From: Candidatus Nomurabacteria bacterium
GTDB lineage: Bacteria > Patescibacteriota > Minisyncoccia > Phycocordibacterales > UBA9973
Direction: 5' to 3'
Assembly (NCBI GenBank): GCA_016699365.1
Contig: CP064973.1
Location: 429,684-493,683, forward strand
Length of the DNA: 64,000 bases
The notes below the pieces were generated by a model. The model saw only the letters and a program-made list of their open reading frames with translations. It was not told the origin of the DNA and searched no databases. Positions 8,306 to 10,118 of the stretch are shown one piece after another. The position numbers were made by a program, and so were the translations under genes. Within the stretch, counting starts at the first letter, position 1. The number at the start of each line of letters is the position of its first letter.

Positions 8306-9856
8306 TTTAATTAGAGTTTGATCCTAGCTCAGGATGAACGCTGGCGGCGTGGATAAGGCATGCAAGTCGAACGAACTAGTCCCTGGAAGTATTTGAGTGA
8401 GTAGCAATACAAACAATTATATGGAAAGGGTTCACTAGTTAGTGGCGAACGAGGTAGTAACACGTGGGTACGTCCCCCAAAGTCGTGAACAACACACCGA
8501 AAGGTGTGCTAATACACGATGGTCCCTCCGGGGTAAAGTTTTAACGCTTTGGGAACGGCCTGCGGGATATCAGCTAGTTGGTAGTGTAATGGACTACCAA
8601 GGCTATGACGTCTAGGGGAGCTGAGAGGCTGACCCCCACCGATGGGACTGAGACACGGCCCATACTCCTACGGGAGGCTGCAGTCGAGAATCTTCCACAA
8701 TGGACGAAAGTCTGATGGAGCGACGCCGCGTGATTGATGAAGTCCCTCTGGGACGTAAAGATCTTTTATGAGGGAAAAAGTTTATTGATTGTACCTCATG
8801 AATAAGGGGCTCCTAATCTCGTGCCAGCAGGAGCGGTAATACAGAGAGCCCCAAGCGTTATCCGGAATTATTGGGCGTAAAGGGTGTGTAGGTGGTTGTA
8901 TTAGTCTTTCGTTAAAACTCCCGGCTTAACTGGGAATCTGCGAAGGAAACGGTACGACTAGAGAATACGAGGGGTGCATGGAACTCAAGGTGTAGGGGTG
9001 AAATCCGTTGATATCTTGGGGAACACCAAAAGCGAAGGCAATGCACTGGCGTACTTCTGACACTCAAGCACGAAAGCGTGGGTAGCGAATGGGATTAGAT
9101 ACCCCAGTAGTCCACGCCCTAAACGATCTTTTCTCGCTATTCGGAGTATCGACCCTCTGAGTGGCTAAGCTAACGCGTTAAGAAAAGCGCCTGGGAAGTA
9201 CGGCCGCAAGGCTAAAACTCAAAGGAATAGACGGGGACTCGCACAAGCAGTGGATTATGTGGTTTAATTCGATGGTAAACGAAGAACCTCACCAGGGTTT
9301 GACACCTACGTGAAAGCTCTAAGAAACTAGAGCCCTCGCAAGACTAGTAGGCAGGTGTTGCATGGCCGTCGTCAGTTCGTGGTTTGAATTGTTCCCTTAA
9401 GTGGGGTAACGAACGCAACCCTCGTCGTGTGTTATATTTGTCACACGAGACCGCCCAGAACTTTGTTCATGAAAATATTTCGTGCATAAAGTTCTGGGAG
9501 GAAGGAGAGGATGACGCCAGGTCAGCATGACCCTTTGATATCCTGGGCTACACACATAATACAATGACGGCTACAACGCGTCGCGACGGGGTAACCCTGA
9601 GCCAATCGTTATAAAAGCCGCCTCAGTTCGGATAGAGGTCTGCAACTCGACCTCTTGAAGTTGGAATTGCTAGTAATCGCAGGTCAGACATACTGCGGTG
9701 AATACGTTCTCGAGTCTTGTACTCACCGCCCGTCAAGTCAAGGGAGCTGGTGGTACCCGAAATCTCTCCATTGGAGGGCCTAAGGTAAAATCAGTGACAG
9801 GGACTAAGTCGTAACAAGGCACGGCTAGCGGAAGCTGGTCGTGGAATAATTCAATT
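8306..9856 (+). rRNA. rrs: 16S ribosomal RNA, stand-alone (no 23S/5S or spacer tRNAs follow)
   Basis: AGAGTTTGATCCTAGCTCAG at 8313. Conserved blocks present: ACTCCTACGGGAGGCTGCAG, GTGCCAGCAGGAGCGGTAATAC, GGATTAGATACCC, GCATGGCCGTCGTCAG, CACCGCCCGTCA, AAGTCGTAACAAGG. The 3' end is approximate. The tail reads GGTCGTGGAATAATTCAAT instead of GGATCACCTCCTTA. Confidence 0.9.
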
Positions 9857-10118
9857 TGAAACCCCTTCATATTTATATGAAGTTAAGGTGTCGGTATTGT
9901 ATGCCTCAATTGAGCATACAATGGTCAGTTAAGCGCGGACCTAAAAGCAGCTTTGACAGGAGGGAAAGCCACCCCAATAGAACGAAACAAAAGAGTATAG
10001 AAACTATTAGATTTTACATATAAAAACGCCCACATCGGGTTGTTTTTTGTTTTTAGAAAGAAGCTTAAACGGATTGACTTTTTGTATATTTGTGATATTA
10101 TAAGGAAAACGTACCAAA

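Follow-up and report, generated by a model that had tools for sequence, protein, structure and literature searches.

Loss of the anti-Shine-Dalgarno tail from the 16S rRNA of a Paceibacteria lineage and signs of Shine-Dalgarno-independent translation initiation

The interaction between the Shine-Dalgarno (SD) motif of mRNA and the anti-SD tail of 16S rRNA is the textbook way in which bacteria find start codons, and full loss of its rRNA side is rare. The CCUCC core of this tail is near-universal in bacterial 16S rRNA, yet it lies outside the structural definition of small-subunit (SSU) rRNA. Here we describe a 16S rRNA gene that has lost the core. The gene is located in a stretch of 64,000 nucleotides from Candidatus Nomurabacteria bacterium (GCA_016699365.1, contig CP064973.1, positions 429,684 to 493,683), which is referred to as the window and numbered from its first letter. 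It provides a fully anatomised example from the one large environmental clade where anti-SD loss is widespread.

The closest described case is this clade itself. The anti-SD motif was detected in only 48% of Parcubacteria (Tsurumaki 2022, RNA 28:1041; PMC9297842). Parcubacteria devoid of it overlap the group without uL1, the meaning of which was left open, and bS21 is frequently absent from Parcubacteria as well (PMC9297842). Era, binder of GAUCACCUCC, is mostly absent from Paceibacteria (PMC10582724, PMC12641178); in the anti-SD-less subgroup Der is absent and Era mostly absent (PMC12641178). Patescibacteria are also among clades with exclusively unlinked rRNA genes (Brewer 2019, bioRxiv 10.1101/705046). 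The 16S of the window belongs to the subgroup of Parcubacteria without anti-SD described in Tsurumaki 2022 and shares its clade, trait and tail family, its lineage having only ~87% 16S identity with the closest representative in GTDB. Both anti-SD loss and unlinked rRNA genes are thus already published for the clade and are not new here. The 2022 study covers motif absence alone; the replacement sequence, the hairpin, the lack of a re-coded SD and the promoter-AUG spacing described below lie outside it. As to unlinked rRNA genes, there is no difference from the 2019 work, to which the window adds the anatomy of the unit (promoter, 33-bp stalk, terminator-like end). No rplA, der or era is found among annotated genes of the 64-kb window, which says nothing on the rest of the genome.

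Initiation as proposed for the window is akin to that of other SD-independent systems. Leaderless mRNAs are abundant in Actinobacteria, Deinococcus-Thermus, many archaea and mammalian mitochondria, where the start codon follows the -10 element at a constant short spacing. In Actinobacteria and Deinococcus the anti-SD is retained and leadered genes make use of SD, whereas the window shows neither, and its leaderless mRNAs are predicted from sequence alone. Mammalian mitochondria combine leaderless mRNAs with SSU rRNA without anti-SD, like the state proposed here; they are the closest functional parallel, which we regard as a lead, not a test. Bacteroidota likewise have no SD, are A-rich upstream of genes and do not rely on rRNA-mRNA pairing (Jha 2020/21, PMC7797042; McNutt 2023, PMC9976891). 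In contrast to the window 16S, from which the sequence is gone, they keep the canonical anti-SD hidden in a pocket of bS21, bS18 and bS6 (PMC7797042), and the leaderless promoter signature of the window sets it further apart from them. Initiation of the Bacteroidota type was considered for the window and rejected, the anti-SD being absent rather than sequestered. Loss of CCUCC together with absence of SD, as here, is known from Chryseobacterium, Elizabethkingia and Riemerella, from Blattabacterium, some Mycoplasma, Carsonella and Hodgkinia, and no compensating new SD was found in anti-SD-less genera (Lim 2012; Amin 2018, PMC6107228; PMC10783764). Those taxa are scattered genera or endosymbionts with tiny genomes, whereas the trait concerns here a large and diverse environmental class; moreover, the Paceibacteria tail, unlike theirs, retains a conserved hairpin-forming sequence.

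The gene matches the Rfam model RF00177 (SSU_rRNA_bacteria) over model positions 1-1533 with 1332 bits (gathering score 50) and is not truncated; features of the locus are listed in Table 1. An earlier reading of the stretch, made from its letters without database searches (the sequence-only reading), had claimed that the anti-SD tail is lost and that the following 250 nt contain no CCTCC. Alignment to the covariance model bears out the loss. The 3' end reads GGAAUAAUUCAAUU as against the Rfam consensus GGAUcACCUCCUUu, aligned with top posterior probability, and stands where bacteria usually carry GGAUCACCUCCUUA; the model places no canonical CCUCC tail. MAFFT alignment with E. coli rrsH gives the same register, in which CCUCC at 1535-1539 corresponds to AUUCA at 9849-9853. 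Within the anti-SD core only U1537 and C1538 are kept, and these are invariant or nearly so in 76 relatives. The change from GGAUCACCUCCUUA to GGAAUAAUUCAAUU demonstrates that the CCUCC core was lost from the tail following helix 45. The claim about downstream sequence holds as well, since CCTCC is absent from 8525-10400 and thus occurs nowhere in the 16S tail or in the trailer up to 10400. Displacement of the anti-SD behind an intervening sequence is ruled out, as neither the interval enclosed by the leader/trailer stalk nor the sequence as far as 10400 contains CCTCC. 16S 3' ends of Paceibacteria should therefore not be annotated via CCUCC search.

The core of the molecule is intact. All pairs tested in the window, i.e. 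the 530 pseudoknot (505-507/524-526), the 921/1396 pair and helix 45, are preserved, and the full-length score of 1332 bits is similar to scores of relatives' 16S. In helix 45, 99.9% of cells are paired across the 76 relatives, with compensatory changes at six pairs. The sequence-only reading had also pointed to altered 515 and 1392 primer sites. These read GTGCCAGCAGGAGCGGTAA and GTACTCACCGCCCGT, respectively, and the changes proved to be structure-preserving double substitutions. Replacement of GCC by GGA at 524-526 is accompanied by replacement of GGC by UCC at 505-507, the two strands of the 530-loop pseudoknot, and it is this swap that causes the mismatch to primer 515F. The triplets are perfectly complementary in 163/163 16S genes examined, with at least five versions in Patescibacteria (GGC/GCC, UCC/GGA, UGC/GCA, UAC/GUA and CGC/GCG). 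In 139 of 140 sequences, positions 921 and 1396, which we take to pair in helix 28 according to standard 16S numbering, are likewise U-A or A-U. The altered primer sites reflect compensatory exchanges rather than decay. Because the tested pairs are kept through compensatory change and the gene has its own putative promoter, processing stalk and terminator-like end, it is a working, functional 16S rRNA gene.

Two further primer sites carry single mismatches: the 27F site (AGAGTTTGATCCTAGCTCAG, 8312-8331) has G changed to A, and the 907/926R site (AAACTCAAAGGAATAGACGG, 9213-9232) has the U921A change. With 515F, 907/926R, 1392R and 27F sites all mismatched, the lineage is under-sampled in amplicon surveys because of these primer-site mismatches arising from compensatory changes. 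The 530-loop pseudoknot can serve as a compact clade marker.

Affiliation with Paceibacteria was derived from 16S matches and the shared 530-loop variant, not from formal phylogeny. The nearest 16S sequences in GTDB are those of Paceibacterota metagenome-assembled genomes (MAGs), 86-87% identical over full length, in agreement with the earlier assignment to the candidate phyla radiation (CPR) type. At least 120 species genomes in GTDB carry the 530-loop variant, nearly all of them assigned to Patescibacteria/Paceibacterota/Parcubacteria lineages, and it is common to Nomura-, Kaiser-, Adler-, Zambryski- and Wolfebacteria records. Out of 76 related Paceibacteria loci with readable 16S 3' end, 71 miss the CUCC core. 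Their tails include GGAAUAAUUCAAUUUGAAA, GGAUUAAUUCCAAUUGGA, GGAACAUAUCCAAUCGGAA and GGAUUAACUCAAAUUGAGA. The loss is a clade-wide derived state, not an oddity of the window. No 23S was found downstream of 16S in any of the 18 relatives for which 5.7-6.9 kb of downstream sequence are at hand.

SD usage was examined in 62 window genes. Gene starts were taken from a crude uniform open reading frame (ORF) caller, and controls were passed through the same pipeline. GGAG or GAGG occurs at -20..-4 in three of the 62 genes (4.8%) versus 1.6% in the control region, and the canonical anti-SD forms duplexes with a mean energy of -1.44 upstream versus -1.49 in the control region. An E. coli region processed by the same caller gives 39% versus 1.8% and -5.45 versus -2.41, respectively. 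In anti-SD-less relatives (334 genes), these motifs are as frequent upstream (9.6%) as in the control region (9.9%). Instead of SD, window genes show A-rich sequence from -12 to -2, with ~50-58% A at most positions -12..-9 and -5..-2, and U at position -1 in 60% of genes. The statement of the sequence-only reading that the genes lack SD motifs and are preceded by A/T-rich sequence is thus confirmed, SD usage being far below bacterial norms. SD-independent initiation, which that reading had suggested, is supported and can be made more specific, as it appears to involve a leaderless signature and short A-rich leaders with U at -1. One consequence is that SD-dependent gene callers will mis-place starts in these genomes. 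An alternative genetic code was also considered and dismissed; the longest ORFs gain no length when TGA is taken as a sense codon, and table 11 was kept.

Relatives that retain the anti-SD were used as a further control. These are metagenome loci with Patescibacteria-type 16S and canonical tail (L123-L242); their 530-loop version is UGC/GCA and their 16S is also unlinked. They keep GGAUCACCUCC and have SD in 12.9% of genes versus 4.1% in the control region (p=3e-6), while likewise showing an A-rich tract upstream of genes and U at -1 (59%). Because these canonical-tail relatives use SD weakly, weak SD reliance probably preceded anti-SD loss.

Promoter-like elements close to start codons set anti-SD-less genomes apart. 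Hexamers resembling the -10 element and ending 6-9 nt before ATG are ~4-fold enriched in the window and ~6-fold in relatives. The extended -10 motif TGNTANNNT at a spacer of 6-7 nt precedes 8/62 window genes and 28/334 genes of anti-SD-less relatives (22 at exactly 6 nt), as compared with 0/56 E. coli control genes. It is also missing from all 26 genes of five GTDB relatives retaining the anti-SD; as these genes are too few, one metagenome scan added 442 genes of canonical-tail relatives, nine of which (2.0%) bear the motif. In pooled raw counts, taken without phylogenetic correction, the signature is present in 36/396 anti-SD-less versus 9/468 anti-SD-retaining genes (Fisher p=2e-6). The peak at 6-7 nt is sharp, ~8-fold above other positions. 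TATAAT brings a stop in frame only at spacers 2, 5 and 8 and therefore cannot produce a peak at 6-7.

A spacer of 6 nt sets the transcription start on the A of AUG, and the spacing observed points to leaderless mRNAs. The signature is found on ~7-8 of ~42 first-in-unit window genes, i.e. roughly one fifth; other recognisable window promoters would give leaders of only ~8-18 nt. The most compact example is a 38-nt divergent intergenic region with two back-to-back extended -10 elements, TGCTATAAT and TGTTATTAT. One gene of this pair (35017-35475, plus strand), predicted to be leaderless, encodes a SET-domain protein of 152 aa. In three predicted leaderless genes, Pfam domains begin 1-3 residues from the called start. 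Window genes predicted to be leaderless include those starting at 35017, 34978(-), 50395, 42400(-), 59995, 1043, 25761(-) and 57332. The window shares with GeneMarkS-2 'group C'-like genomes the -10 element ~6-8 nt upstream of many start codons; the SD use on leadered genes that goes with that group is not seen, as there is no SD enrichment overall.

Sequence conservation among relatives reaches ~18-19 nt past helix 45 and then collapses (information 1.62, 1.44, 1.12, 0.59, 0.10). It ends right after the 3' arm of a mini-hairpin in which tail positions ~1536-1539 pair with the first trailer bases. The arms vary together, the observed types being UUCA/UGAA, CUCA/UGAG, UUCC/GGAA, UCC/GGA and UUUC/GAAA. 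With a register-aware script, 70 of 76 distinct tails were found to form a stem of 3 bp or more, anchored on one shared C. Mean stem length is 3.70 bp, compared with 1.94±0.16 in shuffles and 3.33±0.11 after swapping of 3' halves, and none of 500 swaps reaches the observed value. In the main register, 67-71% of cells are paired and both-side changes occur at 3-4 of 4 pairs; in 75/76 sequences C45 has a G as partner in either of two neighbouring columns. A homologous 6-bp hairpin, CUCCUU-UCU-ARGGAG, is present in the five CUCC-keeping GTDB relatives and in 85 of 109 distinct canonical metagenome tails. We infer that pairing of the anti-SD with the trailer is ancestral in Patescibacteria. Taken together, evidence for the hairpin is moderate, and it would most likely serve pre-16S folding or 3' processing.

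These observations suggest the following mechanism. Initiation would be SD-independent and proceed by two routes. On leaderless mRNAs (~13% of window genes, ~1/5 of first-in-unit genes), produced from extended -10 promoters 6-7 nt before AUG, the 5'-terminal AUG would be recognised directly by a ribosome carrying fMet-tRNA. Remaining mRNAs would have short, A-rich and unstructured leaders with U at -1, whose binding is probably aided by a short bS1. A candidate for such a helper in SD-independent binding of A/U-rich leaders is a bS1-like protein with several S1 domains encoded in the window, which matches NCBIfam rpsA models with E ~1e-60, below their cut-offs. Freed from mRNA pairing, the tail would have drifted to AU-rich sequence, with the hairpin formed with the first trailer bases continuing to constrain it. 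As the tail mutated, the trailer would have followed, because the hairpin itself was needed. We assign a probability of about 0.8 to this reading as a whole, namely a functional 16S without anti-SD, SD-independent initiation by two routes and a tail constrained by its hairpin. Leads on initiation by such ribosomes come from the spacing of leaderless promoters, from U at -1 and from the short bS1, and the covariation of the trailer hairpin as the anti-SD decayed is a lead on what constrains the tail. The window also encodes fmt, def and a hibernation factor.

Three points, all of them provisional, are added here to published knowledge: a hairpin that covaried while the anti-SD decayed, the lack of any re-coded SD, and a leaderless signature tied to anti-SD-less lineages. 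No paper describing them was found in literature searches, which covered few subscription journals; these returned nothing on point for leaderless initiation in Parcubacteria, Patescibacteria or CPR either, which given this coverage is weak evidence of novelty.

Several observations weigh against the proposed reading. The stem of the hairpin is AU-rich and only 3-5 bp long, and its covariation was counted among related sequences, which keeps the support moderate. The alternative register alone does no better than shuffles, and both MAFFT and the covariance model R1 leave the classes with 3-nt and 4-nt loops one column out of register. The processing role and the leaderless route are both deduced from sequence. 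Gene starts come from a crude ORF caller, though controls were treated alike. Since the leaderless signature covers about one fifth of first-in-unit genes, most initiation must use the other SD-independent route, and this main alternative is described by base composition alone. Finally, given the weak use of SD in canonical-tail relatives, loss of SD use may predate anti-SD loss and not be tightly coupled to it.

Four other explanations were weighed. As only 64 kb of the genome are visible, a second 16S copy is possible, and the gene of the window might be a degenerate, mis-assembled or non-functional copy with a working rRNA of normal tail elsewhere. This is highly improbable in view of the score resembling those of relatives, the compensatory preservation of all tested tertiary and secondary pairs, and the promoter, stalk and terminator-like end of the unit. 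The tail type recurs in 71 independent genomes, and the genes lack SD, as expected if the rRNA of the window is the one in use. Alternatively, SD may have been re-coded, i.e. the new tail may pair with a new complementary upstream motif. Indeed, across 69 lineages own tails pair slightly better with upstream regions (-2.51) than tails swapped from other lineages do (-2.28±0.09; 0/100 permutations as low). On a far-upstream control region, however, the own tail gives -2.68, stronger than at the ribosome-binding position, and because of this the advantage must be regarded as an effect of base composition. In the window, the real tail is equalled in its pairing with upstream regions by 131 of 200 shuffled tails, and no k-mers complementary to the tail are enriched upstream of genes. 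There is thus no motif complementary to the new tail in genes of the window or anti-SD-less relatives. A re-coded SD was likewise found in none of 128 anti-SD-less taxa (Amin 2018, PMC6107228), and we consider it very unlikely here.

The two remaining explanations concern parts of the proposed mechanism and are somewhat less remote. All mRNAs may be leadered and A-rich as in Bacteroidota, -10 boxes near starts being a by-product of AT-richness or of mis-called starts. A-rich tracts and U at -1 do dominate and are shared with canonical-tail relatives devoid of the leaderless signature, and ~80% of first-in-unit genes are without it. Yet neither AT-richness nor start mis-calls fit well with a sharp peak of a specific TGn-extended motif, with its rarity in equally AT-rich controls processed identically, with the frame of the TATAAT stop, or with a divergent region too short for leaders, and this explanation is thus unlikely. 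The other one is that mature 16S keeps the 3' hairpin, whose mini-helix fills the platform chamber as a cis mimic of the SD helix. In canonical-tail relatives, however, the ARGGAG arm falls where other bacteria have trailer, a position that we assume from the 3' end of B. subtilis, and a hairpin kept in their mature rRNA would block the anti-SD. The stem is moreover only 3-5 bp long. In favour of such a helix, conservation continues for ~5 nt after the 13 nt of the canonical tail and stops precisely where the 3' arm is complete, the hairpin is kept across several arm types, and h26, a contact of the SD helix, shows an unusual conservation in Parcubacteria for which no reason is known (Tsurumaki 2022, PMC9297842). 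On balance, a cis-acting helix is improbable. The same holds for a joint reading in which Paceibacteria would be a large class of environmental bacteria, neither organellar nor endosymbiotic, with rRNA-mRNA pairing wholly dismantled. Their mature 16S would end in the cis mini-helix, mRNAs would be mainly leaderless or with very short leaders and translated in a mitochondrion-like mode by 70S-type ribosomes, and anti-SD loss would have co-evolved with leaderless promoters and with loss of Era, bS21 and uL1; we doubt that this holds in full.

Table 1. Features of the 16S rRNA locus and of other genes and elements in the window
Feature	Position	Strand	Basis or remark
Putative sigma-70-type promoter of 16S unit, TTGACA-17-TATACT	8072..8100	+	consensus match only, 11/12
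Leader (5') strand of pre-16S processing stalk	8250..8282	+	33-nt inverted repeat
16S rRNA gene, full length, unlinked from 23S/5S	8306..9856	+	RF00177
Helix 6 expansion, ~50 nt beyond model consensus	8374..8432	+	Rfam alignment and MAFFT
530-loop pseudoknot, UCC 505-507 (8811-8813) and GGA 524-526 (8830-8832)	8811..8832	+	MAFFT mapping
Position 921, U to A, inferred helix-28 partner of 1396	9229	+	MAFFT
Expanded helix 40	9451..9501	+	inverted repeat and MAFFT
Position 1396, A to U, 1392-primer-site mismatch	9723	+	MAFFT
Helix 45, intact, 10 bp with GGAA loop	9820..9843	+	Rfam structure line
13-nt tail GAAUAAUUCAAUU, AUUCA (9849-9853) replacing CCUCC core (1535-1539)	9844..9856	+	Rfam, MAFFT
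Mini-hairpin UUCA-AUU-UGAA, tail and first trailer bases	9850..9860	+	covariation in relatives, fold script
Two trailer hairpins between tail and stalk	9865-9882, ~9894-9923	+	minimum-free-energy and centroid fold
Trailer (3') strand of pre-16S processing stalk	9976..10008	+	33-nt inverted repeat
Terminator-like hairpin with U-run, likely end of 16S unit	10023..10055	+	fold; weak assignment
Promoter of downstream gene, TTGACT-16-TGATATTAT, extended -10, ~10-nt leader predicted	10074..10101	+	
Downstream protein-coding gene, 201 aa, lipoprotein-like N-terminus, no Pfam family	10119..10724	+	
Divergent intergenic region, 38 nt, two back-to-back extended -10 elements	34979..35016	.	
Extended -10 TGCTATAAT	34986-34994	-	6-7 nt from start of gene 34978(-)
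Extended -10 TGTTATTAT	35002-35010	+	6-7 nt from start of gene 35017(+)
Short bS1-like protein, 396 aa, several S1 domains	49060..50250	-	Pfam S1 in 3 stretches
RNase J	3882-5864	-	
RsmE	24537-25229	-	
CshA-like DEAD-box helicase	36344-37576	+	
RlmB	47868-48605	+	

As the sequence-only reading had it, the 16S gene stands alone and is followed by a protein-coding gene. Rfam models detect no 23S, 5S or spacer tRNA in the 64-kb window, so that no large-subunit rRNA is present within 8.3 kb upstream and 54 kb downstream. The gene is therefore unlinked by the usual definition (16S and 23S separated by more than 1500 bp, or 23S missing from the neighbourhood). The unit is probably self-contained and separately transcribed, judging from the elements around it. 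Its leader and trailer form an inverted repeat, the usual pre-16S processing stalk, with arms 88% complementary and 1693 nt between them. Among relatives, no sequence conservation is seen in the two hairpins that separate the tail from the stalk. The hairpin at ~10023-10055 was not picked up in a scan for consensus terminators and is hence only terminator-like. A sub-threshold match to the gammaproteobacterial rimP leader (9991-10085; 25.6 bits, gathering score 47) most likely reflects this hairpin and the U-run behind it, where the 16S unit probably ends.

Two helices of the 16S are expanded. The extra hairpin noticed earlier at about 9455-9500 is real and corresponds to a ~30-nt expansion of helix 40 (insertions at E. 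coli 1128-1173 by MAFFT), an inverted repeat with 24-nt arms (9451-9474/9478-9501) that are 83% complementary and enclose a 3-nt loop. Helix 6 has 53 nt where the Rfam model has 4, with insertions at E. coli 68-87 (MAFFT).

Other RNAs of the window comprise RNase P RNA (14975-15309; class A, 118 bits) and five tRNAs (42.6 kb; 62.3-63.0 kb). Four of the tRNAs form a cluster at 62327-62966, with Leu-UAA, Lys-CUU and Leu-UAG on the minus strand and Cys-GCA on the plus strand. RNase P RNA ends at 15309 and an ORF for a FAD-dependent oxidoreductase (473 aa) starts at 15311, so 3' processing of the RNA could itself yield a leaderless mRNA of the adjoining ORF. RNase P RNA near 16S is also found in relatives L056 (1958-2303, ~870 nt after 16S) and L047.

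Genes for RNA processing and rRNA modification are found around the 16S gene, namely those for RNase J, RsmE (16S m3U1498 methyltransferase), a CshA-like DEAD-box helicase and RlmB. An AAA ATPase of 557 aa (26642-28315, minus strand) has its best NCBIfam match in the actinobacterial proteasome ATPase pup_AAA (338 bits, cut-off 505); such a pup_AAA-like protein, albeit with a sub-cut-off match, is unexpected in a CPR genome. Consecutive genes without Pfam family at E<=1e-5 occur at 20294-23319 (203, 357 and 352 aa) and 29002-30603 (201 and 309 aa), both on the plus strand. Two tandem small proteins with domains resembling type IV secretion system (T4SS) pilin/TrbC (55678-56571, plus strand) are encoded directly after a gene for a solute-binding protein.

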